Positions 16,208 to 60,910 of a stretch of 64,000 bases of DNA are shown here, piece after piece. The notes below the pieces were generated by a model. That model had not been told where the DNA came from. It did no database searches and saw only the letters and a list, made by a program, of their open reading frames with translations. Made by a program: the position numbers and the translations under genes. The DNA comes from Psammoneis japonica (Eukaryota). The stretch spans positions 248,001 to 312,000 of the forward strand of contig QPGO01000086.1 in NCBI GenBank assembly GCA_008632985.1. Reading direction: 5' to 3'. Within the stretch, counting starts at the first letter, position 1. Each line of letters opens with the position of its first letter.

Positions 16208-16466
16208 TGTTCATTGTCAAGACTTTCACGACGAGCTGACCGCTGTTGCAAAAGCAGGGACAACACACAACTTCATTGGAAATTGGAAACGGAGCTGCCA
16301 CGACACAACACACCCGACCACGCATCGCAGTGGCATCATTTCTGCACATGGCTGTAGATTCATGGTGCGGATCCACGCACGCAGAAATTTAATGAAGAAA
16401 CTTCGTAGAACATTCGCTCAACTTCAACAACAGTGACGTCATCCTCATTTACATTGCTGCTTCAGG
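16208..16466 (-). repeat. Duplicate of the promoter/5' end (14923..15141) of the DUF6824 gene
   Basis: Shared blocks gttcattgtca, ctgccacgacacaacacac, catttctgcacatggc, cggatccacgcacg and tcaacttcaacaacagtgacgtcatcctcattt. Confidence 0.9.
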
Positions 16467-19010: not shown

Positions 19011-19640
19011 CAAGAACTTTTGTGCAGAGGTGGTGTGAGGTGCAGACCAAGTTGAGGGTGGATCCACATCCACTGATGGGTCGTTGGAGTGTGGATGACA
19101 CTTTCCAACAGGGAGAGACCTGATGGGTCTTCTTGCTGTTGCAAGCAACCTCAAAAGCAAGCACAAAGAGAACACCCACTGTGTGGTGCATGTCATCCCA
19201 ATGCAGGCCAGTTGCTGCATCGGTGCTGGTCAGGGTGCGTGTGCTCACAATGACCCAGCACACCTTGTCAAACATTGCTCTTGCACACATTCTGCAAAAC
19301 CCACATCTAACCAACCCCAATGGAGGACACAAAAGGGCTCGCCATGGCAGTTTGGAGCTGTCTCAAGCAAAGCCTCACACACAAAAACCAAGAGTGGAAA
19401 CTCAAGCCCTGAGGCCCCACCCACTGAAAGGGAGAAATGACCAAAGAAAACAGGAAAACAGATGTGCTGCAATTGCACGTTGATGCCTGCTTCTCAAACT
19501 TGTGGTTGCTTGTGCTGCAAACATGAAAGGCCGTGCAGCTCTTGTTGCACTTGTTCCAACAAATGCAAGAACAAGGCAGGACCACCTTCTTGCAGCCCCC
19601 AAGCAACAGGAGCTCAGACAAGAAGCCCAAGAGGAAACTT

Positions 19641-19900
19641 GGCCTGTTCCAGCTCCAGGTGCTCCGCGCGGGTTCGATTCCCATCATTTGGAAATTTGTG
19701 CATTTGGCGCAATTGACTTCTTCCAAATCCATTTTTTGCCAAATCGAAGGGTGAGCGCACACTTTGCATGCATTTTCGGGTGCACACTCACCTTTTGATT
19801 TTTGAAACGATCAAAATTGAAGGAGCCAATTGCGCCAAACTGCACAGAAAATCGGCCTCTCGCGTGATGAAAAGCAGAGCACCTGGAGCTGGAACAGGCC
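19641..19900. mobile_element. 260-bp foldback MITE with perfect 24-bp TIRs and 4-bp ACTT flanking duplication
   Basis: ggcctgttccagctccaggtgctc (19641-19664) is the exact reverse complement of 19877-19900. Further internal inverted arms. actt at 19637-19640 and 19901-19904. Confidence 0.85.
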
Positions 19901-20259
19901 ACTTGTGCCCTCTTCCCCAGAGACCAGCCCGCTTCAGTCAAAACTTTGTCAACTCATCAATGCCCCAACCCCTGATGTCAACAACAAAAGAAAGAGTGCC
20001 AAGTCAAACCCAGCATCAACAAAGAAAACAATGCACACAAGAATCAAGAGAAGGGCGTTGACAGTTGACAAGGGGGGGAGATGGCAAGGAGGTGGAAAAG
20101 CTGCCTCAAGGGAAAGAGATCTGTCAGAGAGGAGAAAAAAGACCTGAAGGGAGCTGTCATTTCATCACACGATGGCCCTGGCACCACACCCGACAACTTC
20201 AATGCAGGTGCAGGGAGCACCAGTTTTGTTGAGGCACATGGCGAGACATGCCATCTCAA

Positions 20260-21290
20260 TGATGGCTCTTGTTTGAATGGTGGGGCATCAGACAATCAAA
20301 CTTGGCAAGATTGCTGACACTGGCCAGTGCCCCACCTGCCCCCAATGGTGCAATGTCCCAAACTGATTCACTGGGAAAAGATTTGCTGCAGTGTTGGCAG
20401 CATTGCTGCATGGGTCAAGATGCAAAGTGCAAAGATGGAGCTCAGAAAGGTTCGCAGTGTGCCCAACGGTGATTTTGCAGCAGGGTTGCAGCAAAAATGC
20501 ACCAGGGACATCAAGACCTTGGCAGGCGGATGACTGGGGTGTGGACAAAAAAACACAAAAAGACGCTGATCAAGTGTGCGGAGTGGCTTCTTGCGAGCAA
20601 TCTTAAATCTGCTCAAAGGGACAAACAATCGCCAGAGCAGTGTGCCAACATGCTGATGTCACAAGAAAACCTGCAGGCTGCAGCAAGGCTTGTCATGGCT
20701 GAGTGCAAAAAAGGTGGAAAACTTGCGCTGGATGATGTTGATGAAAAAACAAACAAACCAGTCTTTGATGCGCTGCATTTGAAACATCCTGATTTGAGGG
20801 TTCTGGAAGAAGATCATTTTTGCATGTTTGGCAAATTGCCTGAGTTGTGGACATCATCATCACAGAGGCAGTGCGATCAAAACAGCTGCAAGAAAACAGC
20901 CAGGGAGTGTGAGTCTTTGGATGTCGGATGCCAGCTGGCATCAGAACAACTTCTTCATTGCAGAAAGGCCTGTGCATTGCTTGAAGGGGTGCCACGCACC
21001 ATGTTCCGCTGGGTCAGCAACGGGTCTCCCACTCAGACAGCCTGTTGGGCATTGGCAGCAAAGAGGCTTCTTGGGTGCCAAACAAAAATCTGGGAATCCA
21101 TCCAGTCAGCAGCACAAAAGAGGTCTGGCTGTGTGCTGTTGTCAAAGCCATTCTCTTTGTTGCTGGATCAGAAGCCAAAGAAAGAAGTGTGCAACATGGG
21201 TCAGCTTTTGCCAGCCTGGACAAAGCCAGCATTGCAGGCAGTGCTCATGCTGTGAATGTGCTCTGGGAGCAAGTGACACATGTTTGAAAA
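20260..21290 (+). mobile_element. CRE-like non-LTR retrotransposon RT N-terminal remnant, frameshifted and TpA-depleted
   Basis: Across frames: RWSSERFAV.PTVILQ, KGG.L..DDVDEKTNKPVFDAL..KHP, ARK.PGS, SNGSP....ALAAKRLLG, GIHPV...EVWL.AVVKAIL.VAGSEAK, AG..HAV..LWE. Confidence 0.7.
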
Positions 21291-21604
21291 GTGCCACAAC
21301 TTTCCATTTGTTGCTGCCTCCAATGGATTCCATGAGCTGAGCAGGATTCTGATGCTGCACAATGTGAGTCACATTTGACCATCTGAGGCAAAGTTTGCTT
21401 TCAATTGCTGTGAGCATTGGTTGACCCCAATTGTCTGCAGTCACTTCAGCAGGGTGTCCTTGCCAGGCCTGTGCAGCAAGGAAGGAGTTGCTCAAGGTGA
21501 TTCACATGGCAAGACAGTCTTCTGCAGATTGGGAGTTCTTCTGCTGGTTTGCAAAATGAGTGCTTGATTTCCCAATGCATGCACACCTTGCCACACTGAC
21601 AACT

Positions 21605-21629
21605 CAGCAGCAGCAGCAGCAGCAGCAGG
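21605..21629. repeat. (CAG)n microsatellite at the edge of a TpA-depleted block
   Basis: About eight CAG units directly visible. Confidence 0.9.
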
Positions 21630-21634
21630 GAAAT

Positions 21635-24082
21635 TCAACATCCCACAATGCGGTGCTTGCGGTGCCCCCCCGGAAGTAGACTTTTAGGTCTAACAAGCGA
21701 GCACCACACCATCATATCCACTCTGTATGGTGTGTACTCTGTAGCTATCGGGTCTGTCCTTTGCCCCACTAATGACTTACTAAGCTTCTTGAGTTTGCCA
21801 AGCTCTGACGGGATTGTACCTCGAAGTTCGTTAGCACCGATGTGATTGACATTGGTCAACTCTCCCAGCCACGTCGAAAGCGTTCCTGACAACCAATTAT
21901 CATCTAGATCCAGGTACTCTGTGACAGAGAATAATCGAGAGTTGAGTACGATGGTAGGGCCGTTGAAAGCCATAAAAGAAAACTACTTACCCAAGTGTCC
22001 CAAGTTCGCCAGCGGAGCATGCATCGTTCCGAACAAAATATAATCTTAACAAGGTTCAACGTTCGAAGATTCTCCAGTGCCACCATCGACAGCTTCTACG
22101 TACGGAGTTTCAAGGTATTCGTATTCGTCATCATCGTCAGTATAATTGTATGCAACATCATCGTATGGATAATTATTGTGTCCAGGCGGTCCAGGAGCCA
22201 TGGTGGCAGACAAGGTCACGGGCGTGGCAACAGCACAAGGACATTCGGCTGAAATTGCTACCTGAAAAATGGTGCAAAGGACATCCGGGATCGTGCCGTT
22301 TTCTGCAAACTCGTTGAGCTGTCCACAGTTGACAGCGGTAGGCTCAATGATGAGGGGAGGGAAGTTGTCCAAAGTATTGATCTTGTCAATAGAAGACTCG
22401 GCGAATTCCCCGTCACCACAGATTGGGCATGGGTCGTAGTATTCTCCCTCAATTATGACTGCATCGTCGTCCTTGGATATACATTCAACAGGTTTTTCAG
22501 TGGGAGGCTTGCCCCAAGCTTCCGTATACTCGTCATCGTCGCCATCGTTGTAATCGCCAAAGTTGTATTCTCCATTTCGTGATTTCTTTTCTAGTACTGC
22601 AATTGTTTCAACCATTTGCTCGTATTCTGCGTCTTGTTCCTCATACGCCTGAGATAGATCTTCGTATCCATAATCCTCTGTCGCCAACTTACGATCCCGC
22701 AAAGTGACCTCCCAGCGGGTGGTTTCGTAGTAGTCGCGATCAGTGCAATCCACTCCATACCAGGTACAAACACTCTTGCCAGACAATCCAATTGGGGGCG
22801 AATTTCCGCTTGCGCTCGTCCTCCTCATACGGGGCTCGTGATTGATCCGGTGGCACCCAAAGTACTTTAGTACAAGGTCGCCAACGCATCGCGCTGGACC
22901 AACATGAGACAGGTGGGTGGGGCCTGTGCTTCGTCTTCTTCGGCCACCACAATAGAGCACGCTGTATCGGACAGGATTTTTGGGTCTTGGTAGCGGGAGG
23001 TTGGAGCCGGAGCAGGTAGGAGATGGGGTACGACGAGGTGGCTCATTGCAATTCACGGACGAGCCAGAGAACATGCGATTCGCTGAGCCGGAGATAACCT
23101 GAGTGCTAGAAAACAACCTAACGTTGCTCTTGATGGTTAGGGCTGTTCCGCCTACTGTACCTCGCTATCCGACGTGATATTAACCTTCCCGCCCTTCTTC
23201 TGTACATTCCCAATAATGTTCCTTTACCCGTAATCTTTGCTTGTTGGATCTGAAAGACACCATTGGGTGTTGAGCACGACAGTGTTGTTCTTTCCACTAA
23301 TCAAGGTGACATCGGAAGAAATGATTGACAGATCACCATCGTTGCAGATAAAACTATCTTTGGTACCATACGATGACAAATCTAACACGCCGCGCAAGGA
23401 AGACATCGTAACATCACATTTCTCTTGGGCAAAAGCTTTCAATGCTTTTCTCGCATTCTTTTTCATACTCGATAGATCTGCACTTTGATTGACTATGCCG
23501 TCATCGGGGGCGGTTGCTCGAGGCTCGAAGTGAGAGCTACCGTTGACAACCTAATTACTCTCAAGTAAATCATAGCTGGCTCCGCACAAATCTCCAAAGA
23601 TAGCTGCTTCCAAGCTCCTCTTGTTTTTCACGACCACCTTCTTCCTTCCTCTATCCGACAGCATCAAGACGGCGCAACTACCAGCAGATCGCAGCGTTTC
23701 AATGGCATTTTCACATTTCTTCTCGGGCAAATAAGCAGCAAACAGAAGGGAGAAATTCGAAATAGAGTTTGTGGGTATATGGTTAGCCGGAAGCAAAGGT
23801 AAATTGTGAAAGGGAATATGATTAATCAACGTAGATCACCATTGTCTCTACGCACCACAGAAGCGAGCAGATTCTTATGGGGACTGGAGCCGGCATTGCT
23901 TGCCATGTTTCCGCGCAACATTGCTCCAAGGTCTAAGAAAAGCATGACGATCGCAGTGAGTCTCCTACATATCAGCGAATTCTGCAGAATTACGAAATAT
24001 CGCATTTCACACTATACCTGTTGCATCGCTTATTGCCAAACCAAGGAGGCAAAGGATTGCTTTGCACGAGGCCATCATCTTT
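21635..24082 (-). pseudogene. Degraded paralogue of the LRR/ice-binding-like gene at 8108..11937; 3' LRR exons lost at the repeat block
   Basis: Colinear similarity (LRSAG.CAVLM.SDRG.KKVV, VNC..PPRRT.SPT, KSVCTW.GVDCTDR, EYL.L..NWLSGT.S.WLGEL) with multiple frameshifts and deletions. Confidence 0.8.
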
Positions 24083-25448
24083 CGAACTCAGCGTTTTTGC
24101 TTGTTCTTTTTTACGACGGAACAAACCGAACAGCTCATTGTTGCCTTGTAAAAAGAGATATATTCTCACGAACGTACCGATAAGCAGGGACTCGACAAGA
24201 AATTCAAAATTAGCGCTGCCATGCAAGAGTGATATAACCGCGATCTCACCATTGACGGTGATGCGAATTCCGCACCAATAGCGGGCGCTGTCTTGTTCAC
24301 CTCTCCAAACGTTGCAAAGGTTCAACGCGGGTGACAGCAGCTTTTGACAACGCGACACAAAGCGTCAGTACCGTCGGCGGAACACCCCAGTATATCAAGT
24401 ACTTATTCAATTTCCTCGCAAACAACTCCATAGCCTAAGCGAGAGGACCTTCATTGCTTTTATCAGCATTATTTTTTGGAGGTAATTGCCACAGCAAACG
24501 ACCTGATCAATCGATATAGGGAACTGCCATCAACTGACGAGACAAGAGTGTCTTGGATACGTTTCATGACATGCTTTTATGGGATCGATGACAGGTGATT
24601 GTGACGGAGACACAAAGCGCCACAGCAACACCTCTCAGCTCGGCAGAGTCCAAATCAAATTCGATGAAAGCACTGCACGATGTTCAGCGTGCAGATTTCA
24701 GAAGAACTGTGTAGACGGCAGGGCCCTGCTTCTCTAGTAGAGAGTAGACTCCCTCTCTAGAGCTAGCAGCAAGAGAGTAGAGACAAGACAGAAGACACTT
24801 CTAGAGTCTCAATTAGTGGCTTGCGTTGCCGCATCCATCCTCCATCCTCCATGCCATCGCATACGGTACGGTATAGATAGACTACATCTTCGGCATGGGA
24901 TTCGCCATCTCGGTCGTCTGCTCCTCAGTCTGCTCCTCATCCACCCCCAGCCACATTCACGTAGAATTCTACTCAGTTTTGTACCAGATCATATCTTTTG
25001 CTGAGAAAAAATGAGAAGGGAGGCTGGCGCGAGTGAGGTCATTTTCCAAATTCGCAGTTGTTAAGTACAATTTTGGCGGGAAAGGAGAGATTTATGCCCT
25101 ACAGTCATTTTTCAAGTGAATGTCCGACCAGCATTGCCCCATGTTTTCGAACACCATTTTTTAAGGATCGAGAGCCTCACGCACGCCGACTCACGACCAA
25201 ACGCAGGTGCGGAGAAAAGACTTTTTCACGAAATACAAAATACCGCTGGGACTCATCAAAGCCACGTAACAAACAAGGAAAGACTAGCGTGAGCGTCACA
25301 GCAGCAAAAGGATTTACCCCGATAACTCTCTCCTGAGGAATTACGAAGTTTCGAGTACCGCAGTCACCACCTCGACCCGACTCTCCAGCTCCCACCCTGA
25401 TTCTTGAAACGAAGAAACACTGGAAGTTGTAAACAGATTGGACTTATT

Positions 25449-28639: not shown

Positions 28640-30180
28640 TTTTCTCCGAAAACAACTGAACAAATCACAACAAGTTTCTGTGTTCATCACAAGGCCACAA
28701 CTCTGCCTTGGTTTCACAGCCACACCCCCCCCTGCGTGTTTTTCTGCACAAGCTCTGGCGCAGATGTCGCTTTTCTCTGACGGTGCAACGACGGTTCTTA
28801 CCTGCCTGTTCAGACATGTTCTTTTATTGACATGCCTTTGTTCTGTGATCATTGGCAATCTTGTGCAGTGGAAAACGATTGGCATCAAGCCCCCTTTCAG
28901 CTTGTTTGCTCGGCACTCTTCTCAGCATTTTTCATTTTCAGTGTGAGTTGGTGGTCAATTTTCACTTCTCCTTTCCTTCTCATGTTGAAGGCATTCCAGG
29001 CTGCCTGTTTTGCCTTTGCAGGCAGACCCGATCCCAGGAAGATGGCCTGATCAAAGCATTGAGCACTTTCCTTTTGAAGCCCCGCTGTGGCTGCTGGCCC
29101 TGTTTTTGTTGTTGTCAGCTGTTTCTGGTGGGCACCACAGCTTTGTGGCATCAATCTCGACTGGCTGATTGTCATGAGCCCCTGCTGCATCGCATGATGT
29201 GCTGGGGGTGTGGGTTGGCTTGTTGCCGGAGTTGCAGGGCGGAAGCATGGCAGCACTTTAAATGCGCAGAGTTTGGGTTTTGGTTTGTGCTCATCACAAG
29301 GCCAGTTGTCCATTTGGTTCCAACCAAGAAACTGTTAGCTCAAATGGAGAAGATTGCATGCTGATGATCAAAGCAGCACAAAGCAGGTGCAAATGGATGC
29401 CACAAGAATTCTGAGCACAGCAAGGATGTTTTGAGTGGACAGGCAGCTTCGCTCCATCTGCGCCAGTTTCTCTCAGTGCTGTGACACCCATTTGCCTGAC
29501 ATGATGGAGTTGATTCTTTGCAATTTCAGCCAGTGTGAGTGGCAGCCTGCAACATGTGCAGGGATTTCTTTCAACTTGCATCAGGTGCTCTTGACGCTGA
29601 ACAATGCAGCAACAGGCCTCCCTGCCATGCCAACAAATGTCCATGGCAGAAGGACTCAAGTGACAAATCTCGGAAGAAAGTGGACAACATGGCCATCATG
29701 TGCATTAGCCCTCCTCATGTTGCTGCAGCAAGACAAGATTTGAGGTCAGTTTTCATGACAAGAATCTGCACTGGGTGTGAGGGAAAAAGCAAGTGTCGCT
29801 CACAAGCACTGCAATGAAAAGGAGTGACAAGCAGCTTTGTTGGCTGAGAACTGTTCAGACTGTGCACACACACACAATGGATGCCAAGAGAAAGCATGAT
29901 GCAAATCATTGCCATCCCCATTGGCTGCACTCTGTGCTTCTTGAAGTGCAGCTGCATGGACAGTGGAAAGCTAGAAAGGATGGGAGACTGGACACTTCTG
30001 GACAAGAATGAGGACTTTGGTGTCATTTGGCACTGGAAAGTGTCGCTTTGTTCAATTTGAGGAATGGGAGGGGAGTTGCAATGTTGCCATTGACTCACAA
30101 ACAGAAAGAATCTTGCAGCAAGGTTTGGCGTGCAATGGCAAAAGCCACGAAGAACTGGAAAATAAAGAGCAGTCACTGGA
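28640..30180. repeat. TpA-depleted decayed repeat block, family not identified
   Basis: Only a handful of TA dinucleotides in ~1.5 kb; overlapping Tyr-free Cys/His-rich ORFs in all frames. Confidence 0.65.
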
Positions 30181-34882: not shown

Positions 34883-35153
34883 AAATAAGCCTCACAGAAG
34901 ATTGATATACCACAGACTGTGGGTACAAAGAAAGAGTCGTCAAGAGGTATTTGTTTTGTCACGAAGCGCTTTTTCTCTGGCTCGTTTTTGATTTTGAGTT
35001 CTGGTTCGCGTGTTCGTACGTGTCAGAGGCCCAAATAATGTTCCGCGTTCGCGCGCGCTCCTCCGTCGCGTCACCGCGCGCGCACACGCTTTCTCCTGGT
35101 TCGTACGTGCGTCGTGCGCGGATGATGAGATCATGAGGCTACGGTGATCGTTC

Positions 35154-38058
35154 ATGGCGTTCACGTTGTTCATCACGAACAGTCCAGCGGAGCCAGAATC
35201 AAGCCGCCACTTTAGGACAGGTGCTAAGAGCTGCATTCAATGTTAACAGCTTGCTTCAAATGATGAAGTGCTCTCGTTTTCTTTCATTCTTTCCATTTGT
35301 GTTGCAGTTCTTTGCGCTTCTCTTTGCAATTTCACCTGATGCGAGTGGCACAACGACATCCCAGAAAATGTTTTCAACTCGCATCAAATTCTATCGATGT
35401 GTTGAACAACACAGTTGTCGAACATCTGGTGGAACTGTCAATCCAATGTGCTCAACAAAAATGCGTGTCAGAGATCTGTGCGGACTTGAATGTTCTCTCC
35501 CCCGAGAACAAACATCATGAAAATCAGGACCATCACAAAACTGATGCACAGAAGAGGAGGACATCACCGATGAAACTTTCTGCCTCATCATTGAAATGAA
35601 ACAATGGCTGTCAAGATCAGGACGGTCATCATGACAAAATCACTGACTCGATCGTGCGAGAGCCAATGTCCAACTTCCTCCGGGTTGGGGTCAAACGTTG
35701 CTTGCTCTGGAGACACTTGCAAGATTGACTGAGGAAGGAGCAGATCCCAATCAATCAAGAGTTCAGTCTGTGGTTTACACAACACTGAAACTCATCTTGG
35801 TTGATCAAGTGCTGGGTGCTTCTTGGATGATTCTGGGCTTCTCGCCGACACTCGTCATTCAAGATTGATTGCATCCAGCAAGATGAGCCGAGCCGAGGCT
35901 TGCACTGCATCAGTTGACAAGATTGAAACATTTCTCTTGTCTGATGAGGGCAAGCTGAGTTTCATTGCCTGCACTTGCAACTCACTGCCAAGGATTGGCA
36001 AGGTGCTTGAAGCAATTGGAGGCAGCATTTCCTCTGGCATTTTTGATGAAGCACAAAAGATGGAAGGAGCAGGAAGGCCATTTGGATGCGACTCCTCATT
36101 GGCACACACAGGCTCCAAAACAAATCACTGTTTTGGGATCCAAGCTTGACAAGTGCGGCGCACAAACACTCTTGCTGAAAGGGGGAGCAAGCGCCACTCG
36201 TTGTCTCTCGGGCATTCAGAGCTTTGTCAATGAAGATCTGTTTGGTCCATGTGTCAAACAACGGACGTCAGGAGAAAGCATGGAGCAAAACATTGCGGCT
36301 CCAATGACGCTGTGTGTTTTGGACAGAAGCGAACTTCATGCTGCAACAGGCAACAATGTCAACAAGGAAGGGGCCTTCTTTCTGCCCTTTGCCATCCAAG
36401 CATCTTTCCATGAGCTCAATGTGAGCCATGCTGTCATGTTTCACTCTGCCAATGCTTGAGCACAGGCTTTTGCAGATTTGGCTAGATTTTTGATGAAGGA
36501 CCATGTTTCCACATTTGTCGTTTGTGGTGGCACAAAGATGTCTTCTGCAAAATGCGAACAAACATTGCAAGAGGCAAGACGTGCATCAAAATCAGTTGTT
36601 GCCAACTGCAAAGTCCTGGCAACAGGTGTCGACAAGGTGGATTGGGACTTGGTGGCAATTGCGGATCCTGTCCGAAGCTCCGTTCTCGCACATCAAATGA
36701 TTGGACGCATCAGCCGGAAAGCATTTGGCAAGCAATGCGGTTGCGTCCTTGTTCCCATCCCAGTTGCTGCTGATGATGAATTGTCTGAGGATGCTTGTGG
36801 ATGCAAACTGTTTGCGCTTGCTTTTGAGGCCATGGTTGGCCTGGATCCTGAGTTGCATCAGGACGTCTTGTTTGTGATTGAAGAAAGCAGCAGACTCGTT
36901 GGAAGGCCTTTGAAAGAGACAGAGCTCCCTTCTTGTGTGCTCGAGTCATTTGTGCTCCCCGATTCCATGTCATTTGAAATGAAGAATGACGCGATGAATT
37001 GCGTCATCCGAGATTGCAAAGACAAGAGTTCCTGGGAATGATGGGAGACAAATGTTTCACTTCTCAAACAATTTAAGAAGAGGGAAGGAAATTTGAGGAC
37101 ACCAAAGGGTCACAAAGAGGATGGAATGAATGTTTTCAATTGGTCAAAAGCTCAAAGGAGAGCCAAAAAGAAAGGCAAACTGGACGCTTCTCGACAGAAA
37201 CAACTTAAAAAGATTGGGGTGATGTGGGATGTTCACATGATGAGCAATGGGACGCTGTGTTTTCACTTCTCGAACAATTCAAGAAACGGGAGGGACATTG
37301 CAGGGCACCAACAACGGGTCACAAAGAGGATGGGATGAATCTCGGCAATTGGTTAAGAACCCGAAGGAAAGCCAAAAGGAATGGGGAACTGCTCGCTTTT
37401 TGACAGAAACAACTTGAAAAGATTGGGTTTATGTGGGACGTTCATGATGAGCAATGGGACTCTATGCTTTCACTTCTCGAACAAGTCAAAGATCGGAAGG
37501 GCCATTGCAGGGTACCAAGGGGTCACATGGAGGATGGGATGAATCTTGGAAAGTGGTTAGACACCCAAAGGAGAGCTAAAAAGAAAGGTGAACTGGACGC
37601 TTCTCGACAGAAACAAAAAGATTGGGGTGATGTGGGACGTTCGTGATGAGCAATGGGACGCCATGTTTTCACTCCTCGATCAATTCAAGAAACGGGAGGG
37701 CCATTGCAGGGTACGAAAGGGTCACAAAGAGGATGGAACGAATCTTGGGACTTGGGTAAAACAACAAAGGAAAGCTAAAAGGAAAGGTGAACTGGACGCT
37801 TCTTGACAGAAACGATTGGAGAAGATCAGGTTTATGTGGGACGTTTATGATGAGCAATGGGAAGCTATGATGTTGTCACTTCTCGAAAAATTCAAGAAAC
37901 GGGAGGGACATTGCAGGGTGCCACAGGGCCACAAAGAGGACGGGATGAATCTTGGAACTTGGTTGCAAACCCAACGGAAAGCTAAAAAGAAAGGGAAACT
38001 GGAGAACAGCCGCAAGGAGCGACTGGCAGATCTTGGCGTTGTTTTTGCAAAAAAGTAG
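35154..38058 (+). pseudogene. SF2 (ResIII-like) helicase + five helicase-associated (HA) repeats; stops and frameshifts; helicase half TpA-depleted
   Basis: QLPPGWG(K/Q)TLLAL (motif I), IFDEAQK (II), NCKVLATGVD (V), QMIGRISR (VI). Five ~200-bp repeats W..M.SLL..FK.REGHCRVP.GH.EDG.NLG.W...QR from ~37040. Confidence 0.85.
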
Positions 38059-38309
38059 CCTCTACGATGCAGCGTGTCGAGCGTCGTTTGCTGAAATGCG
38101 CTTAGTCTCATCTGCCCTTACTTATATACTGTACTACAACGAATGATTACAAAACCTCGACTTGCTCTTTATTAGGCTTTTTGACTCAACCTAAATCCAG
38201 GGTCGGCGGTTCGAACGATTCTTTCCCCATTTAATATGATGAATCCTCCATACCGAATAAGTTCAATTTTATCTTTGTTGCTTTTATTCGTTGTTTCATG
38301 TAATTTTAT

Positions 38310-39578: not shown

Positions 39579-39959
39579 GATGGATGGATGCTTCACAACA
39601 ACAATGAGCAAACGGTGAAGTGTGAGAGGTGAGACACCATGGGCGGCGGCACATTATCCCCAGCGTTCGGAGATAATTTTATACCAGCAAATTACGTAGA
39701 AATCTACAAAAATTGTCCGTAGTACATTTCTAAGTAATTTTTCTCGTAACGACCGACGCGACCTCTGTCTCCCCCCCAGACTTTTTCGCACAAATCAAGC
39801 CATTTCGAAAAAAAAAAAAAAAAACACATAAAAATGGTGGCTGGATTGCGTTCAAGTTTGTGCAGTTTTTGTGCGACGCTCTGTTTGAGAGGATAACCAG
39901 GTCTTCCGGGACAATTTTTGGGTTTTTCTTTGCTCCAGTGGTGAGAGTCAAATTTCCTG

Positions 39960-41710
39960 CCGTGTGTCATCTGTTTTGGTGTGTTTGTTGATGCAGGGTT
40001 GTTTGTCAACAAAAGTTGGCACTCGCTCTTCCAGTGATGTTTGTTTGAGCATCAAGAGCTTTTGGCTCCTTGTTGCACCAGCACAATGCCAGCATTTTGA
40101 GCCAGCTTGAGACAACCAAAAGCACCTTGAAAAGGCAAAAGATGCAGTGGATGCAAAAGTCAAGTGTGCCGGCACACCCCCACTTGTGAGCATGCTGGCA
40201 TTTCTGAGACTGGGTCCATTGAGAGTGTCCTGCACTGCAATGCCATGCACCCTTGCCCACCAAACACAGCACAAAGCAGATTGCCAGCAACTGGCCTTGC
40301 TCCCCACAGCACAAAATGAGTTGCCGGCAACTTGCTGCTTTCAGCAAGCACAAACTTGCCCCCCTCAGCACAAGGTGGGTTGCCAGCAACCTGCTGCCTG
40401 CACTGCAGCAAGTGCTTGTGGCAGAACTGACACAATTTGCTGTGCTCATTTCATTGGCTGTTTGACAAACACCATGCACAGCAGCACCATTTTTCTCTGT
40501 CATTTGCAACAAACCTTGCCTCTCAGAGAACTCTCTTGAGGGCCATGCTGATGAGCTGTGTTCACTTTGCTGTTCCCCCCTGGGATCTTCTGCCAGTGGT
40601 GACAACACGGCTGCACCAAAAATTTGGCCTTGCTCGAACAAGGAGAGCTGACAAGTGAGATTCATGTGAAGTGTGCTTGTCTGTCATGCAGCGGAAGATG
40701 ACCTTGGCATGCTGCATGTTCCAGCCTCAATGTGGGCTCTCTGCATGACACAGGCTCACAGAACTGGTGTGTGCAAGAAGCTCTGCAGCTGATGTGGTGG
40801 GCAATGGGCACGCTTGTCCTTGACATCTGAACAAACAACCACTTTGCAGCACCGCCACACTTTTTCACACTCAAAATGTTTGAAAGCATCTGCTTTTGCC
40901 AGCAGCGCAGCACCCCACAGACATTGAACACTCTTTGCATTGGAAAATTCCAAAAGTTGCTGAATGGATGACCCAATGATTGAGCCCCAAAAGCTGGGTG
41001 CAAAATTCACCCAAACTTGCTCAGAGACATGCAAGCACAGCATGTGGCACACATGATCAAAACACATTCATGTCACAGCCTGGTGCTGCAATGCCCCACC
41101 TGGAACTGAAGTGCCTCCCTTGTGAAGCTTCAATGGAAAGCCAAAATGCCAGCATCTTGTGGCTTCAAAATGCAGTGCACACAAACAGGAGGCCAGAGGC
41201 AGCACTGGTCTGTGGCACAGAAAACAATGTCAAGATTCTGACTGACATCCAAGATGGAGAGCGCACACTCCCTCATGTCACACAGACTGGCACAGATGTG
41301 CTGGAGAGATCCAATCATCTCTGCTTTGACATCCCCAGCTTTTTTTTCTTCTCCAGTGCATGATTGTTGCCATCTGTCCCAGACGTTGTTAGATTGTCCC
41401 AATGCCAGCAGTCCGCAAGGTTCCACAAGAGAAAATCTGACAATGACCAAAATGAGACTGTGGGCTTGCTTCTTGGCTCACAAAACAATGGAGAGCAGCA
41501 GCAGCAGGCTGCTGCAAAAGAGGGCGTGGTGTTTGCAAGGTCCCGCCACCTGGGTGCCTCAGGCCTGTGAGAGCCAGAAAAGTCAACAAGCACCGGGAAA
41601 AACTCCCTGCAAACTGGCAACTGTGATGACATGAACACTGGGGCAAGAAAGAGTGAGCAGATCTTGGATGGAGACCTGCTGAGCTGTCCAAACTTGTGGC
41701 ACCCATCGCC
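39960..41710. repeat. TpA-depleted decayed repeat block into which the gypsy element inserted (continues ~44970..46110)
   Basis: Near-total absence of TA; Tyr-free overlapping ORFs; family not identified. Confidence 0.65.
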
Positions 41711-41714
41711 CATT

Positions 41715-42146
41715 TGCAGCATGCCTCGCTGCTGGACAACACGGCGAGACCGTGCATGAGCCTCTTGCACGTGGCAACGCAGCATTGTCAACACGCACCT
41801 GGGAAGCACGACCACAGGAGGGCGTGGCTCTGGGTCTCAGGCAATTCCAGAAGGATGCCAAGAGAGCATCCGTGTGAAGCACACTGGCCCGTCATCTGGC
41901 CCACGATGGCAGCGTGATTCCACACGATGACATCACTCATGCATGGCACGTGATGGCTTGATTCGCACGATCCACAATGCGAACGCACGATCGATTTGAT
42001 GTGATCCAAATGCGAACAAATGGGGATTTGGCAAGATTCCCTGTTCGCACGATCCCATTTTCTCTGCTCTAAACTGGCTCACAATTTTCACAACGACAAA
42101 GTCGCAACACATCTTCTTTTTCAGCGCCTGGTGCACACACAGGGCA
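41715..42146 (+). repeat. 5' LTR (432 bp), TpA-mutated
   Basis: Aligns end to end with 44526..44961 apart from a 4-bp indel and transition-dominated changes. Confidence 0.92.
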
Positions 42147-42240
42147 CAGCAATGTCACTCCCGCATGTTGTGCGAGGTGACGAAATCTGCAGAAACGAAA
42201 CTGCGAAATGTTGGCAGGACCGACAAATCTTAAAACGACC

Positions 42241-43283
42241 ATGAAGAAGCGGACTGAGCCACCGATTCCGTTCGCACGGCCGGAGAAGAAAGAGCTGCAG
42301 CAGGGCGAGTGCCAGACATTCAAGCTGCGTGACAACCCCACTGATCCGGATGGTCCAACACACGAGATGGGCATTCCGCACCTTTCCACGGCTGCATGCG
42401 AGACACTCCTGATCTTTCTGCGCAACGTGGATCGCGTGCATGAAGGACAAAACATCACGACCGGGCCAGTGAAATTTGCCCTCATGCGTGACCTGCCACA
42501 GGGCGATGCTCTGACGTCATTTGACAATGCCGCTGACAAGCAGGCATCCCAACCAATGCCACATGCGCAGCATGCGTCGCGAAGCTAAAGGAAAGTGTCT
42601 TCCCACACAGGGCGGCACTGTTGCAGAAGCGTCATCTGAGGCGCTTCATGCGCAAGCCCGCAGAGGTTTCCACTTGTGACTGCGTTGCAAGGGCTGTTGA
42701 AATTAACGGCTGCATCTCTCAGTTTCCACCTGTGATGGAGGATGGAGAAGCACCGGCACCATTGCCCAACGACGAACTGCGCAACATGTTCGAGTGCGGT
42801 GTGCCGAGCGCATGGCAGAAGTTCATGACGCTGCAGAATTTTGACCCGTTGGCGCATGCTGTCACCGAATTTGTGCAGTTCTGCGAGCGCATCGAGCAGG
42901 TCGAGCTTGCCGAAAGCAACCTGGACCAACACACTGAGGTTCCACGCAAGCGGGGACGTAGAACGGACAATCCTGAGTCGTTGATCACGACCCAACGGAG
43001 CACCCAGAAGTCGTGTGTGCTGCACGGGACTGACTGTGGACATCATGCGGAGGATTGCCGTCAGCTCAAGCACCACGTGAAACGTGTCAAGACTGGACAT
43101 TCCAACAACGGAGGCAGCAAACCTGATGCAAAACCTCGGAATGAGGAAGACATTGATGCTCTCATCGGATCGAAGGTCGAGGAGTTCTTTGCCAACGCTC
43201 AGAAAAAGTGCAAGGCACGCGAGGAGGAGCTTGATCACTTCCGCGACCTCAGCTTGAGTGACTCCAAAGATTCGGACACCTGA
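42241..43283 (+). pseudogene. gypsy gag, frameshifted, Tyr-free
   Basis: KLRDNPTDPDGPTHEM, QKRHLRRFMRKP, LPNDELRNMFECGVP..W, C.LHG...HHAEDC zinc knuckle. Confidence 0.8.
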
Positions 43284-43319
43284 GAAGGGGGCCGACACGA
43301 CACAGGTGGTTTTGGTGCA

Positions 43320-44486
43320 TTGGATGAATGCACAAATGAACAACTGAATCACCATCGTACACGTGTTGTGGGCCAACCCCGCAAACGAGTTAAAAAGACT
43401 CATCTCACTCCAATCTTGTTCATAGCTGTGAATGCCAAACATGGCAAGGGCAAGACTCAAACCATTAAGGCACTGCTAGATAGTGGCGCCAGCAGTGCTC
43501 TACTCGACAGTCGACACTGTAAACGTCTGCGAAGCCATTCAACGGCTGAAACAAACTGTACTACGGTAGCAGGCTCGTTCAGTACGTCTAACGACTGTAC
43601 CGTTAAATTTCGGTTACCAGAATTATGCGAAACTGCAGAACTTAAACATACCGTCCACGTACACAACGGAAAGTTGGGCAAGTACGATATGATTATTGGA
43701 CGTGACATTCTGGAGACACAAGGCATTGATATTGTCTTCTCTAAACAGATGATAGAGTGGCCATTAGTCAATGGAGAAGTACCAATGAGGCACGTCGATG
43801 CTACGGTAGAAACCTCCTTCTATCTTCAAGATCCAGAAGCCTTATCTTCGGAAACCGACCGGATTTCGCGTATTTTAGACGCTAAGTACGCGCCGTGGCC
43901 AACCCAGGTGGTTTATGACCGTGGGACAGAATTTATGGCAGAATTTAGCCAGATGATTAAAAATGACTATGGGATTTTGAAGAAACCCATAAGTAAACGG
44001 AATCCACAGGCGAATGCCATAGTGGAACGTGTACACCAGACACTTGGTAACATGGTACGTTCCTTTTCAGTACAGGATATGGAACTGGACGAAGATGACC
44101 CATGGAGTGGCATCCTCTCCGCAGTAGCCTTCGCTATTAGAGCTACGGTACATACGACCACGCGTGCAAGTCCCATGCAATTGGTCTTCGGACGCGATGC
44201 GGTTTTATCTATTGCCTATCGTGCTAAGTGGAAGTACATAGAAACCAGAAAGCAGAAGCTTATCCACTTAAACAACAAGCGTGAAAATCAGAAACGCAAG
44301 GAGTATCAATATACCGTAGGGCAATTGGTACTTATCAAACAGGAACAATCCTCTAAATACGGTTCTGACAGCTATGCAGGACCCGCCAGAGTTGTCCGTG
44401 TATATGACAACGGCACGTTGCGTGTCCAGAACGGAGCGCTGATAGATACGTACAATCTACGGCAGATTGTACCCTATCACCAGTAA
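43320..44486 (+). CDS. Deleted gypsy pol: aspartic protease fused in frame to the C-terminal half of integrase
   Basis: ALLDSGASS, YDMIIGRDIL, then ILDAKYAP joined directly to WPTQVVYDRGTEF; SPMQLVFGRD; GPA/GPY-like motif. Confidence 0.8.
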   Translation: MDECTNEQLNHHRTRVVGQPRKRVKKTHLTPILFIAVNAKHGKGKTQTIKALLDSGASSALLDSRHCKRLRSHSTAETNCTTVAGSFSTSNDCTVKFRLPELCETAELKHTVHVHNGKLGKYDMIIGRDILETQGIDIVFSKQMIEWPLVNGEVPMRHVDATVETSFYLQDPEALSSETDRISRILDAKYAPWPTQVVYDRGTEFMAEFSQMIKNDYGILKKPISKRNPQANAIVERVHQTLGNMVRSFSVQDMELDEDDPWSGILSAVAFAIRATVHTTTRASPMQLVFGRDAVLSIAYRAKWKYIETRKQKLIHLNNKRENQKRKEYQYTVGQLVLIKQEQSSKYGSDSYAGPARVVRVYDNGTLRVQNGALIDTYNLRQIVPYHQ

Positions 44487-44525
44487 GACATCCTGTCACT
44501 TAACGGCCCTGATCATGGGGGAGTG

Positions 44526-44961
44526 TGCAGTATGCCTCGCTACTGGACAACACGGCGAGACCGTGCATAAGCCTCTTGTACGTGGCAACGTAGTATTGTT
44601 AACACGTACCTGGGAAGCACGACCACAGGAGGGCGTGGCTCTAGGTCTTCGGCAATTCCAGAAGGATGCTAAGAGAGCATCCGTGCGTGTGAAGCACACT
44701 AGCCCGTCGTCTGGCCCACGATGGTAGCGTGATTCCACACGATGACATCACTCGTGCATAGCGCGTGATGGCTTGATTCGCACGATCCATAATGCGAACG
44801 CACGATCGATTTGATACGATCCAAATGCGAACGAATAGGGATTTGGCAAGATTCCCTATTCGCACGATCCCATTTTCTTTACTCTAAACTAGCTCATAAT
44901 TTTCACAACGACAAAGTCGTAACACATCTTCTTTTTCAGCGCCTGGTGCATACACAGGGCA
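44526..44961 (+). repeat. 3' LTR (436 bp), TpA retained
   Basis: Follows the PPT; contains 23 TA dinucleotides by hand count. Confidence 0.92.
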
Positions 44962-46117
44962 CATTGCCATGGTGTCTGCCAGGCTACAAACAGCAGACAT
45001 GGTCAAAATGACAAGCCCAACAGAAAAATGACACAGACAGAACACCAGACTGTTTGTCAAAAAGAATGTCTTGCTTTGCCTCTTGTTGTGTTCTTGCTTT
45101 GAGCTCTTGTTCTTGTGACAATGTCGTGCCAAGGTGGCTCAACAAAAATGTGAACAAATGACAGGTGTGCCAGCAGATGCAATGGATGCACTGCCACTCT
45201 GGCCACTGAGCTGGCTGCCAGAGAGTGCTGGAGAGTGCTGGCAAGTGGATGGCGGGGAGGCTTTGAGAGCAACAACAAGCACGCATGCATTGTGCAATCA
45301 TTGCCAACGGTGCTCACGTGAGTCATCAGGCATCACACGCCAACTCCTTTTCACTGGCCACCCGGGCAAGTGATGTCAAAGTTTTGTTTGTGAGCGAGTG
45401 AGTGACAGTGTCCAGGTCACAACAGGAGTTCACACGTGTGCAAGATGTGATGAGTTTGCATCGATTTTTACAAGAGTTGTCAGGAACTGACATGACAGTT
45501 TGTCACGGAGCATCCGGGCTGCAACAGGAATTCGCAGATCCTGCATGTGCAACACATGGCAAATTTACATTGATTTGACTGTCACACACAATGACTTGTT
45601 GCCCTTTTGCACATGAGCTGTGCAGCACACATGCATCTTAGACTGACGGTTGATTCACGTGACCTTGTTCTGACAGAGCCAGCCAGCCGGTGCTGCACAC
45701 CAACCCCTGTGGCATTCTGCATCACACACCAGAACTTTCAATTGTTTGCAGACACCGGTGTGTCATTGAAAATTGACAACCACTGATTTTTTGCTTGTGA
45801 CATGACCACAATGACACACTCTGTTGCACAAGTTTGGGCCCCACCCCGGAACAGTTGCCAAGCCATTTGGGCACAGCTGTGTCAACGAGATGCTTGTGGA
45901 ACACACACATCTCATTGGCTTGGCAATTCTTCATGGTTCGCAAATGAACAATGGCAAAGGTCTCATGTGTTGTTTCATTCATGCACTTGGCATCAATCCC
46001 AGTGGAAAACCTGCGCAGGCTTGCTCTGAGCTGCAAGCGCGCATGCATGCTGATGACCTTGTCCAGTCTTGCCATGGTCAGTGCCCCCCCTGAAGGGCTT
46101 GTTTTTCATGCACTGCC

Positions 46118-46825
46118 AGCTGCTTTAAATGTCACCACCTGCTTGCTCCACAACATGATGAGGGGCTTTTGTTTTCTTTTGGCATTTCTCTTTGTGTCAC
46201 AGTTCTTTGCTTCTTTGCAATTTCACCAAATGCAAGTGGCTCAACAACATCCCAGAGAGTGTTTTTAACTCACGTCAAATTCTGTTGATGTGTTGAACAA
46301 CACAGTTGTCAAACATCTTGTTGAACCATTTTTCCAAGGTGCTCAACAAAAATGCGCATCAAAGTTCTGTGTGGATGTGAATGTTCTCTCTCCCGTGAAT
46401 GAACACCATGAAAACCAGGGCCATCACAGAACTGATGCACACAAGAGGAGGACATCACCAATGAAGAAACGTTCTGCCTCATTGCTGAAACGAAACAATG
46501 GCTGTCAGGATCGGGATGATTGGCATGACAACATCACTGACTTGATCACACAGCATCAGGACAGAAACAGTGTGAGAGCCAATGTCCAACTTCCTCTGGG
46601 TTGGGGCAAAACATTGCTTGCTCTGGAGAGATGCTTGCAAGGTTGACCAAGGAAGGAGCAGGTCCCAATCAATCAAGAGTTCAGTCTGCAGTTTATGCAA
46701 CACTGAGGCTCACAATGGAAGACAAAATTTTCACTTCTTGAACAATTGAAAAAATGGGAGGGACATTGTGGGGTGCCATGGTGTCACAAGGAGGATGGGA
46801 CGAAACTTGGAAATTGGTCAGACAA
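46118..46825 (+). pseudogene. Second, internally deleted copy of the helicase-HA gene (5' region joined to one HA repeat)
   Basis: Aligns to ~35229..35794, then jumps to QWKTKFSLLEQLKKWEGHCGVPWCHKEDGTKLGNW. Confidence 0.85.
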
Positions 46826-58059: not shown

Positions 58060-59983
58060 TGAGTCAGCTTGATGACAGCATCTCGTACAGGCCATGACGG
58101 CATGTGCATTGCTTTGGCGCTGGCACAAAGACAGACCGGCACACCACCATCTTCCCAACCTGGGCGTCTGGAGCTGATCTTTGAAGAAGGAATCCATGAT
58201 CTTCTCAAGCAAAGATGTGTTGCTCTAATGACAGCAATGCTTTCATGCTTTAGAGTCTGGTCTCTGCCATTTGTCAGATGTCTTTTTGAGACATCTGGCA
58301 CAGGACAGCACGCGCTTCCTTGCCATTCAGGCCATCGCATGACACCACAATGGGCAAGAAGTGACGGCGTTGCTCAAGGCATGGCTTGAGATGCTTGCAC
58401 TTGTTCTCCTTTTTGTGGTCCAGTGGGACTTGTCATGAGGTCTTGGAAGCACAAGAGGGTGGTGCATCCATGTTGGCTGCTCTGACATTTGTGTGACCAG
58501 GGCTGCACTTTTGTCCCACAACCCTCCAACTGAACAAGAAAGATTTCCACGGTTGCCATCTCTGGAGTTGTTGCCAACAGCAACTTGGCTCAACAGGCCA
58601 TTGGGTTCACTGTTGGCTGTTGGGCTTCTGACCAGCAGGGTTGACAAGAGGTTGGTCAAACAGACAGCTGGTCTGCCCTTCTTGTGCTGAAGGGCAGCAG
58701 CATGCTGCATGGAGAAATTGCAGTTGCATCCACCACAAGCCTCTTCAGCAAGTCAGAGGGGCTCTTTGCCACAATGCAGAAAAAGGCAGTTTTGAAATTG
58801 TTGACATGAAAGTTTGGTGCCGTTCAGTGTGGATGGGCACGCTGATGGCCAAGCACCAGCTTTGGTGCTGTGCCTTGCTGTGTGGGATTTGAGAGTGTCT
58901 TCATCATGCTTTGTGGCTTTTCCTGTTGGCAACTGCCATGCTTTCACCTTGTGTGCATTGCGTCCTTGTGAACTGCTGTGCTGGTGAATTGCATGCACGG
59001 CCGGCTGTGGAGCAAATGATCAATCTGCAATCATGTGGGAGCACGCATGAGAGTGCTTGCTCCTTCAAAGCTCTGCTTTGCAGAGCAGGAAAACAAATGG
59101 GATCATGTGCTGGAAGCACTGTAAAAAAGACCAGTTTTGGCTGCAAGGAGGGTGCCTTTCAGCTTTCTCGTGTGTCTGTGATGCACTGTGATGCAACACA
59201 CCAGAAGTGGCTGTGGAGCACATCGCAGCACATCATGTGTCTGCAACACACATTCCAAAATCACCGCATGCAGTGCATCGCTGCATTGAGTGGTCTAACG
59301 TCATCATCGACTCATGTGTTTTTCTGGTGCAGCATGTTGCAACATTCCACAGGGTGGTTAAACTCCTCATGATGAACAATTTCCCAGTCATCAGTGGGAA
59401 GTGTTGTTTCATCAAAAAACCATTGCTTCAAAACCATCACAATCAATGTGAGCATCTTGTGCAACTCTGCTGTCACATGCATCAAGAGCACTGAGGAAGT
59501 GGCAAAAGAGCTCACCCTGCTCCTCAAGCACACCTTGAGAAAATGGTGGAGTGTGACAAGCTGCCTTGCATTGACAAAAGCAGCACGACTCAGGCAGCAC
59601 CCACAAGCAATTAAAAGAGAGAAAGGGCTTCTGGGAATGACAGGACTTGTGCTTCAATTCAGAGAAGGGGAACTGACAAAGCATTTTTGGATGGAGTGAT
59701 TGTGCCAAGTTGCCCAAAGCATGCTCCAGTGCCCCCAGGCACTGAAAAGCCTCGCATTGAACCAGGCACCATTGAAAGAAGCTGAAGTGACAAGTGCAGT
59801 GAAAGAGTCCATGATTTCTTCTGACTTGGGTGCTGTTTTTGTCTGCCCAGAAATCTTCAACAGCAGAGAGCTGATGCTGATGCTGCCCCACCAAAGGGCG
59901 GCAGCTTCAGCGGTGGAGGCTGGGTGCAAACAATGGTCAAGTGCCCCCAGCACAGTGCGCCATTGCATCTTTCAGGGTGCACC
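58060..59983. repeat. TpA-depleted decayed repeat block, family not identified
   Basis: Very few TA dinucleotides; Tyr-free overlapping ORFs. Confidence 0.65.
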
Positions 59984-60910
59984 TGAGTTTTGGTGTTGTG
60001 CAGATCACAGACTGAACTCTTGATTGGTTGGGACCTGCTCCTTCCTCAGTCAATCTTGCAAGCATCTCCAGAGCAAGCAATGTTTTACCCCACCAACCTG
60101 GAGGAAGTTGGACATTGGCTCTCGCATTGTTTCTGTCGCAGTGCTGCTGCACGATCGAGTCAGTGATGTTGTCATGATGACCATCCCAATCTTGATGGCC
60201 ATTGTTTCATTTCAGTGATGAGGCAGAACGTTTCATCGGTTGTGTCCTCCTCTTCTGTGTGTCAGTTTTGTGATGGTCCTGGTTTTCATGGTGTGTTCAT
60301 TCACGGGGGAGAGAACATTCACGTCCACACAGATCTTTGACGCACATTTTCGTTGAGCATCTGGGATTGACGGTTCAAAGAGACATTTGACGACTGTGTC
60401 GTTCAACACATCGATGGAATTACCACCTTCTTCTTATGAAGAAATCCCACTCAACCATCTTCAATGTTTTTTCACATGTGTGGCCGAAGGGCGGTGTTGA
60501 GAAAGGAAAAAGATTCGTGGCGTCACCTGAAGAGATTGGCAGCAGCCATGGGAGACACCATGCACCTGTTGGACATTGGAAGGATGACATCTGTGAGAGC
60601 TGTCTTGGTTGCTATGACGACAATTACGAATGTCATTGGTGCCTCTACAACATTCTCTGGGATGTTGTTGCGCCACTCACACTGGTGGGTGAAATTGCAA
60701 AGAAGCAAAGAACTGCAACACAAACAGAAAGACTAAAAGAAAACGAGAGCATCTCATCATGTGAAGTAAGCTGGTAACATTGAACGCAGCTCTTACCACC
60801 TGTCCTAAAGTGGCGGCTTGATTCTGGCTCCGCTGGACTGTTCGTGAGATGAACAACGTGAACACCATTGGATTGCGGCGATGATCTCATCTCATCATCA
60901 TCCGTGCGAT
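59984..60910 (-). pseudogene. Third, 3'-truncated copy of the helicase-HA gene 5' region (inverted), with ~220 bp of extra sequence
   Basis: Reverse complement matches ~35113..35794, including acgaacagtccagcggagccagaatcaagccgccactttaggacaggtg and RANVQLPPGW.GKTLLALE. Confidence 0.88.

Follow-up and report, generated by a model that had tools for sequence, protein, structure and literature searches.

The 64,000-nucleotide stretch of Psammoneis japonica DNA analysed here (assembly GCA_008632985.1, contig QPGO01000086.1, positions 248,001 to 312,000; hereafter the window) carries at 41715-44961 a dead, degenerate retrotransposon with long terminal repeats (LTRs), which belongs to the Ty3/gypsy group (Metaviridae), and the gag gene of this element, at 42241-43283, contains no tyrosine. 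Where did the tyrosines go? We hold it very probable that, after the insertion, a DNA-level change of TA to CA or TG erased them, that the TA-poor state is derived, and that creation of TA in the manner of repeat-induced point mutation (RIP) is to be rejected. The initial annotation had claimed this direction and had argued that RIP did not create the TAs of the other copy. It is supported on both points by four lines of evidence, namely the one-sided differences between the two LTRs, the adjacent pol gene as a control, the other copies of the element in the same organism, and its relatives. The change took place after integration, was specific to TA and fell on both strands, and the affected tract ends sharply at a point off any boundary of the element.

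Loss of tyrosine in gag and the direction of the change

All nine peptides quoted in the initial annotation are present in the window, those of gag within 42304-42806, KQCGCVLVP at 36730-36756, WLHLK at 15665 and AESHCE at 15755. The contrast that it drew between a gag without Tyr and a pol with many also stands, with no Tyr in 115 + 248 gag codons (16 His, 13 Cys) against 14 in the 400 codons of the pol remnant (15 His, 5 Cys), but gag is not the one intact frame of ~330 codons that had been described. It consists of about 346 non-overlapping codons in two frames, separated by a frameshift near 42550, and five related contigs have one extra base after 42550. Tyr makes up 2.27% on average in the 150 listed gag homologues, and the chance of gag losing all of it is about 2-4e-4. 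Note that tyrosine is encoded only by TAY codons. The gag DNA has 3 TA dinucleotides in 1043 bp, an observed-to-expected ratio (o/e) of 0.06, whereas in the pol remnant past 43358 there are 81 in 1129 bp (o/e 1.01). The absence of Tyr is not independent of this TA anomaly but one face of it.

Which residues should be expected at the His and Cys of gag? A phmmer search gave 1105 gag homologues (best E 3.7e-48), and 70 of the best 150, with a length of 330-445 aa, were aligned; the two gag pieces were added to this alignment as fragments. Ten columns have at least 25% Tyr among the 70 homologues. The window reads C, H, H, F, H, C, C, S, H and P there, that is His or Cys at seven columns (4 His, 3 Cys) and Tyr at none, and the first three letters, C, H and H, stand at the three Tyr-dominant columns of the N-terminal part. 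Among the homologues, His or Cys is rare at the ten columns (46 of 683 cells), so that the seven of ten in the window have a binomial P of 6e-7. Tyr had been expected at seven named gag positions. Six of them (Table 1) fall in columns with Tyr as the most frequent residue, but the seventh, the Cys of FECGVP, belongs to a column dominated by Phe with Tyr in second place. The consensus of 25 homologues has Tyr at the window's His in the QKR-LRR motif and at its Cys in the VAR and EIN motifs. Four of the 70 homologues, metagenome proteins from ENA (P0016, P0023, P0045 and P0095), are themselves Tyr-poor, with His or Cys at 4-5 of the ten Tyr-rich columns; they may originate in hypermutated copies of other samples.

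The pol remnant gives an internal control. Of its 120 listed homologues, 60 (P0157-P0216) were aligned with it. Eleven columns of this alignment are rich in Tyr; the remnant retains Tyr at 9 of them and has neither His nor Cys at any (Fisher P 0.001 against gag). The direction was also examined by back-change. Each CA or TG was returned singly to TA, and the non-synonymous cases that gained more than 2 bits toward the homologue profile were counted. In gag the gain was found in 24 of 99 such cases, against 8 of 130 for other C>T or G>A changes (Fisher P 1.7e-4), 5 of 204 for other T>C or A>G changes and 14 of 121 when CA or TG was turned into CG. In pol beyond 43358 the numbers are 3 of 82 for CA or TG to TA and 5 of 154 for other C>T or G>A changes. 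Back-mutation to TA thus improves the fit of gag to its homologues, as the initial annotation had predicted. At columns with a consensus of at least 50%, one-step TA>CA/TG departures number 11/49 in gag against 1/41 in pol (P 0.005). The winning back-changes go beyond Tyr and correspond to losses of the kinds Thr>Ala, Asn>Asp, Ser>Gly and Met>Val after T, Ile (ATA)>Met and Leu (CTA)>Pro. The Cys at 42675 and at 43209 stand in columns where 55/70 and 33/62 homologues have Arg; these two derive from Arg by CpG decay (CGY>TGY) rather than from loss of Tyr, and make up part of the His/Cys excess.

The LTR pair tells when the changes were made. Both LTRs come from one insertion, because a CATT target-site duplication flanks them, and reverse transcription leaves the two LTRs of one insertion identical at the start; as they differ now, the changes were made in the chromosome, after integration. 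The 3' LTR has 23 TA, and at 22 of these sites the 5' LTR reads CA (12) or TG (10), while the reverse case does not occur at all. The 12 CA and 10 TG outcomes mean that both strands were hit. CG sites are one-sided too, with 6 of 33 reading CA or TG in the 5' LTR and none in reverse, and they point the same way as the Tyr columns because C>T cannot make CG from CA or TG. In total there are 30 substitutions between the LTRs, 22 of them T/C or A/G at TA sites, 6 of CpG type and only 2 of other kinds, to which one 4-bp indel is added. Expressed as rates, 96% of TA sites and 18% of CG sites were changed, against well under 1% of ordinary sites in the ~430 bp. The 22 changes at TA compare with at most 1 at an AA or TT step.

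What do the other copies of the element tell? Contigs from a run of the same organism were placed at 80% likeness. The gypsy family is highly repeated in this organism, with 3777 contig pieces placed, where depth figures are not to be taken as copy numbers. Among the 40 of 231 variable places that are listed, 16 have TA in other copies where the window gag has CA or TG (depth shares from 0 to 0.84), and at 6 the other copies show CG against CA or TG in the window (shares up to 1.0). Seven of those places (42783, 43017, 43047, 43125, 43155, 43209 and 43266) are favoured by the homologue profile as well. In addition, 79 related metagenomic loci (L001-L079) were fetched with an integrase alignment. 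None of the 79 has a 600-bp segment with TA o/e below 0.15, and their median TA o/e is 0.82. Thirty of the loci match gag over 150 aa or more; their gag DNA has a TA o/e of 0.41-0.92 and encodes 1-11 Tyr, against 0.08 and 0 in the window. Many contigs of the 79 loci are about 5.0-5.5 kb long with the integrase match at varying offsets, which looks like whole elements assembled in circular permutation through their LTRs.

TA-free zones and the architecture of the element

The depletion extends beyond gag. The TA-free state holds from 39895 to 43357 and again from 44986, just past the 3' LTR, and the 3' half of the element has a TA o/e of 0.96. The tract is local and the host genes are spared, as glucokinase and CARME keep TA o/e of 0.60 and 0.46. 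There are six TA-free zones in the window (Table 1). Their TA o/e is 0.03, against 0.62 outside, with CA at 1.76, TG at 1.78 and CG at 0.35; AA, TT and AT are nearly unaltered (AA/TT o/e 1.19 and 1.25 vs 1.13 outside). The GC content is 49.7% in the zones and 46.9% outside. On both strands of the zones the stop triplets are 835 TGA, 35 TAA and 18 TAG, and open reading frames (ORFs) of at least 110 aa occur at 2.83 per kb, compared with 1.52 per kb outside. Of these frames, 47 from the zones were scanned against Pfam and none matched a family.

Do the neighbouring bases matter? Thirty-two TAs survive in the zones, and none of them has A before or T after, while 911 of the 1906 TAs outside have such neighbours. 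The survivors are mostly of the form YTAR, that is TTAA, CTAA/TTAG and CTAG. A rule on the 3' neighbour (T>C>G>A) fits the survivors but was rejected for want of agreement with the LTR pair, whose outcomes are 10 better, 6 worse and 6 ties; an additive per-strand context model fits the survivor counts and is likewise unsupported by the outcomes in the LTR pair. In another repeat, which is present in three TA-free copies, 109 adjacent double differences were counted, of which 39 set CA against TG and 8 belong to the type next in frequency, and there are three-state sites of the kinds CA/TA/TG (2) and CA/CG/TG (6). This is as expected from independent decay of TA and CG. Segments 9752-11942 and 21775-24083, which share 70-76% identity, have normal TA, so this duplicated stretch was left untouched by the TA process.

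Two remnants outside the element had also been cited for lost Tyr. In the helicase remnant the claim holds: LlaGI and LlaBIII, the closest relatives of known structure, have Tyr aligned with both Cys of KQCGCVLVP (E 8.5e-5). Adjoining this remnant, 37055-38075 consists of about 4.6 tandem units of about 205 bp, which encode repeats resembling a helicase-associated domain. TA density rises gradually through these units, and the codon at the key column varies from unit to unit (TAT, CAT or CGT), which makes the contrast of Tyr and His ambiguous there. The other remnant, 15545-15895, had been called hAT, and this assignment found no support: Pfam gives no hAT family at E up to 10 and there is no relevant solved structure for it either (15665-15772), where heavy decay could mask a true relationship.

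The Ty3/gypsy traits found in the element are its LTRs, the target-site duplication and the gag knuckle, while reverse transcriptase (RT) and RNase H are missing from the window copy by deletion. Relatives of about 1070 aa have RVT_1, RT_RNaseH, Integrase_H2C2 and rve in the gypsy order in their consensus. Residues 3-203 of the pol remnant match homologue residues 2-211 and residues 192-400 match 884-1096, with weak aspartyl-protease matches in Pfam. Between them, a deletion at 43860-43895 has taken away RT, RNase H and the integrase N-terminus (homologue residues about 212-883). Its junction lies ~500 bp beyond the TA boundary and the two do not coincide; TAs are dense from 43358 onward and the tract ends near 43340. 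The gag stop TGA is followed in the same frame by the 400-codon pol remnant. Stop-codon read-through may be needed for pol expression in intact relatives; alternatively, the TA>TG process may have produced this TGA from a TAA.

As for the surroundings, the left flank of the element has TA o/e 0.01, CG o/e 0.16, CA 1.74 and TG 2.03, and its ORFs gave no match in the Pfam scan. The right flank has a repeat in common with 35140-35810 and 59970-60880. A neighbouring host gene carries a DUF6824 domain (E 3.5e-17), and its nearest Atlas clusters are mostly Bacillariophyta (scores 0.82-0.84, to be taken as a lead only). For the glucokinase gene of the window the neighbours are oomycete and diatom.

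Table 1. Positions of the TA-free zones, the parts of the element and the gag residues discussed in the text
Feature	Position	Strand	Remarks
TA-free zones (six, 16.6 kb in total)	15218-21676, 28826-29972, 35393-37073, 39895-43357, 44986-46693, 58252-60420		from dinucleotide counts
Helicase C-terminal remnant	36730-36756	+	Pfam Helicase_C, E 6e-7
Left flank, older TA-free CpG-poor repeat	39895-41714		no recognisable protein family; 1 TA in 1820 bp
Target-site duplication CATT, left copy	41711-41714	+	identical 4 bases directly after the 3' LTR, 44962-44965
5' LTR, hypermutated copy	41715-42146	+	92% identity to 44526-44961; 1 TA
gag N-terminal part, frame 1	42241-42585	+	0 Tyr; aligns with the first ~115 residues of ~380-aa gag homologues
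Frameshift splitting gag	42545-42560	+	frames overlap at 42537-42588
gag C-terminal part, frame 3	42537-43283	+	0 Tyr; TGA stop at 43281-43283; phmmer homologues
gag Cys	42310		column Tyr 45% (70 homologues)
gag His	42361		column Tyr 75% (70 homologues)
gag His	42379		column Tyr 53% (70 homologues)
gag His	42633		column Tyr 61% (70 homologues)
gag Cys	42681		column Tyr 46% (70 homologues)
gag Cys	42711		column Tyr 57% (70 homologues)
gag Cys of FECGVP	42795		Phe-dominant column: F 41, Y 14 of 70
Native C-X2-H-X5-H-X4-C knuckle in gag	43014-43058	+	knuckle residues common to 67-68/70 homologues
Right end of the TA-free tract, inside the element	43308-43358		last site with TG in the window and TA in other copies, 43308; first surviving TA, 43358
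pol remnant, TA and Tyr normal	43284-44486	+	protease and C-terminal half of integrase
3' LTR, essentially unmutated	44526-44961	+	23 TA, 34 CG
Right flank, older TA-free CpG-poor repeat	44986-46693		TA o/e 0.04, CG o/e 0.30

The proposed process and competing explanations

What kind of process could leave such a pattern? We propose that the 5' half of the element (41715 to about 43340) was swept after integration by a TpA-specific transition process, which would have turned nearly all TA into TG or CA. The two products would arise in about equal numbers, which means hits on both strands. All Tyr codons would become Cys (TGY) or His (CAY), because Tyr has only TAY codons. Other codons would be altered in the same sweep, Ile ATA to Met, Leu CTA to Pro and, after a preceding T, Thr ACN to Ala, Asn AAY to Asp and Ser AGY to Gly. 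A slower decay of CpG to TpG or CpA affects the same DNA and adds further Cys through Arg CGY>TGY. It follows from the genetic code that no sense codon can become a stop through TA>TG/CA; the damage is of missense kind only, and TAA and TAG are erased. The activity needed would have to recognise TpA in duplex repeat DNA and change A to G, equivalent to T to C, on either strand. Our leading idea is that a TadA/ADAT2-like enzyme deaminates adenines preceded by T in silenced repeats. Such an ADAT2-like adenine deaminase has about an even chance of being the mechanism, and the TA process may serve as a genome defence.

Several points weigh against this reading and should be noticed. At 44760 the 3' LTR has TA where 93% of the other-copy depth, and the 5' LTR, have TG, and at 44790 it has TA where 65% of the other-copy depth has CA; TA could be derived at these two sites, or most genomic copies could be hypermutated. 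The other-copy evidence covers 40 of the 231 variable places. Three Tyr-rich columns read F, S and P, which are not explicable by TA changes, and most of gag's 29 His and Cys are native (those of the knuckle, C 42882 and H 42855) or unexplained. The 'expected Tyr' is the column majority among homologues that are only 27-46% identical to the window gag, and not the residue of a reconstructed ancestor; among proteins close to the query in length one relative was found, at 46% identity. The flanking-base rule is inconsistent, the strand with the better context having been changed in only 10 LTR cases against 6 worse and 6 ties. And the tract stops near 43340, where no feature of the element lies, and spares the 3' half together with the 3' LTR for no apparent reason. 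Back-changes favoured by the profile by more than 2 bits occur just past the boundary, at 43434, 43497 and 43626, which hints at a tapering edge of the tract.

Among the other explanations, two keep the TA-specific process and change its chemistry or its boundary. TA is palindromic, and A>G is indistinguishable in sequence from T>C on the other strand. A chemistry other than adenine deamination is therefore to be considered, though we regard it as unlikely. It has two forms. In the first, the thymine of TpA would be modified, for instance oxidised to 5-hydroxymethyluracil or 5-formyluracil, and would mispair so that T>C results. The 5-hydroxymethyluracil of dinoflagellate DNA prefers TpA, and 5-formyluracil mispairs with G; the CpG loss that accompanies the TA loss would fit two modifications of pyrimidine C5 in silenced chromatin. 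In the second, the changes would come from error-prone repair synthesis of the Pol eta kind. The hot spots of Pol eta are WA, and the observed changes are too specific for that: the zones show no shortage of AA or TT, and hardly any of the LTR changes fall at AA or TT. Thymine modification is the main alternative to adenine deamination; a recent preprint prefers an ADAT2-like adenine deaminase, on homology only (bioRxiv 10.64898/2026.01.13.699255).

The sharp boundary could also be a mosaic, in which the process is the same but an unmutated copy supplied 43358-44961 through gene conversion or recombination, so that no mutation tract ended there. We think this improbable. Donor copies would be plentiful in so highly repeated a family, the element was already rearranged by the internal pol deletion, and the TA-normal island stops exactly at the 3' end of the element. 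However, the target-site duplication fits a single insertion, the LTRs differ outside TA and CG sites by no more than 2 substitutions and one indel, and the hints of a tapering edge past the boundary do not look like a clean junction.

Could the direction be the opposite, as in RIP? In that case the element was TA-poor at its insertion, and C>T at CpA/TpG made the TAs of its 3' half and 3' LTR. The difference between the LTRs, almost only TA against CA or TG, is directionless by itself; other copies mostly agree with the 5' LTR at 44760 and 44790; and the TA o/e of 0.96 in the 3' half is above that of the two host genes. All the same, this explanation is hardly credible. It leaves the His and Cys of gag at Tyr-dominant columns, and the Tyr retained by pol, without a cause. 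No relative has a TA-free stretch, and their TA o/e does not go below 0.57. Under RIP, CAA, CAG and TGG codons would be expected to turn into TAA and TAG stops, yet the pol frame runs open through 400 codons in DNA with 81 TA. The CG sites, equally one-sided at 6 against 0, argue in the same sense, for C>T cannot yield CG from CA or TG.

Editing of RNA before integration, with a transcript hyper-edited from A to I and copied into DNA, would account for A>G with a preceding U or T, and this resembles ADAR-type editing, as is also remarked in the preprint (bioRxiv 10.64898/2026.01.13.699255). But it is extremely unlikely here. The LTRs of one insertion, copied from the same template, differ at 22 of 23 TA sites. 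The strands are about equally affected, both in the LTR (12 CA, 10 TG) and at the Tyr columns (4 His, 3 Cys), and the TA-free state extends into flanks that do not belong to the element and is found in the helicase remnant as well. Finally, an origin without any mutator, by selection or codon usage in gag, may appeal to the mild scarcity of TA throughout the window (o/e 0.62 outside the zones), yet it is as good as dismissed, since the depletion goes about 20-fold beyond this background, covers the non-coding LTR and the flanks, stops inside the element and is absent in 79/79 relatives, and the LTR pair refutes it.

Relation to known systems and significance

Is such a process known elsewhere? 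Full-text literature searches found TpA hypermutation only in one preprint of 2026, and nothing of it for diatoms or LTR retrotransposons. According to its main text, mutation-accumulation lines of Bigelowiella natans acquire de novo TpA>TpG/CpA changes in integrated viral DNA, the TpA-poor genes of that species are enriched in Pfam families of transposon type, and an ADAT2-like adenine deaminase is proposed as agent on the basis of homology only; the main text reports no wider flanking context (Mettrop et al., 2026, bioRxiv 10.64898/2026.01.13.699255). The two cases, as far as that text describes the B. natans one, are alike in that the changes are almost only A>G/T>C and confined to TpA, giving TpG and CpA, and in that they are local, follow integration and fall on foreign or repeat-like DNA, leaving clusters depleted of TpA and enriched in CpA and TpG. 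They differ in host, which is here probably a diatom and not a chlorarachniophyte, and in target, here an LTR retrotransposon and unclassified repeats and not giant-virus or virophage inserts. The erasure is also near-complete here (TA o/e 0.03), whereas the described virus region of B. natans still has 3.3% TpA dinucleotides. The process was watched in lines there; here it is deduced from sequence, dated by the LTR pair and read out at Tyr codons. Thus the type of process is already known, and what this locus adds is the Tyr>His/Cys read-out and a half-mutated element with its LTR pair.

Other systems are more distant. Fungal RIP is likewise a dinucleotide-specific transition hypermutation of repeated, integrated elements at the DNA level which leaves genes alone. 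Its sense is the reverse, since RIP turns CpA/TpG into TpA, makes DNA AT-rich and creates stops, while here TpA becomes CpA/TpG, the GC content hardly moves and no stops can be created; TpA-rich, GC-poor repeats with stops, as left by C>T at CpA, are not what the zones of the window look like. APOBEC and ADAR editing in animals resembles our case as context-specific hypermutation of retroelements of deaminase type, and the preprint cites a preference of ADAR for a 5' U (bioRxiv 10.64898/2026.01.13.699255). It acts on cDNA or RNA during replication, on one strand, and leaves the LTRs alike, while here the LTRs differ and both strands are hit. Methylation-driven CpG decay of silenced transposons does occur in the same DNA (CG o/e 0.35; 6/33 CpG lost in the 5' LTR), but it is much slower than the TA loss (18% against 96% of sites in one LTR) and cannot account for it.

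What does the finding mean? The direction of change at a palindromic dinucleotide could be obtained without a whole genome, from Tyr codons, the LTR pair of one insertion and the untouched half of the element. The rate is far above background: 22 of the 23 TA sites were hit, while about 430 bp acquired 2 substitutions of the ordinary kind. There are consequences for annotation too. Tyr disappears from hypermutated transposon genes while Cys and His increase, and homology searches are blurred by this; the stop-poor TA-free DNA yields spurious long ORFs that may be mistaken for genes. The mutated and unmutated halves of one element offer a natural test site for the enzyme and for the chromatin mark that sets the boundary. 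For the host range, a TA>TG/CA process reported in one chlorarachniophyte, as the preprint describes it, has shaped repeats in a probable diatom. We venture, as a tentative and somewhat doubtful extension, that diatoms possess a dedicated TpA editor targeted by chromatin, working in sharp-ended tracts of kilobases and the same system as that of Bigelowiella. It would be an old defence of the SAR lineage mirroring RIP, which rewrites integrated repeats and inactivates by missense only, Tyr>His/Cys foremost, while TAA and TAG are erased, and from which YTAR sites partly escape. If this is true, the long open frames left in all six phases could seed new genes or mislead gene callers.

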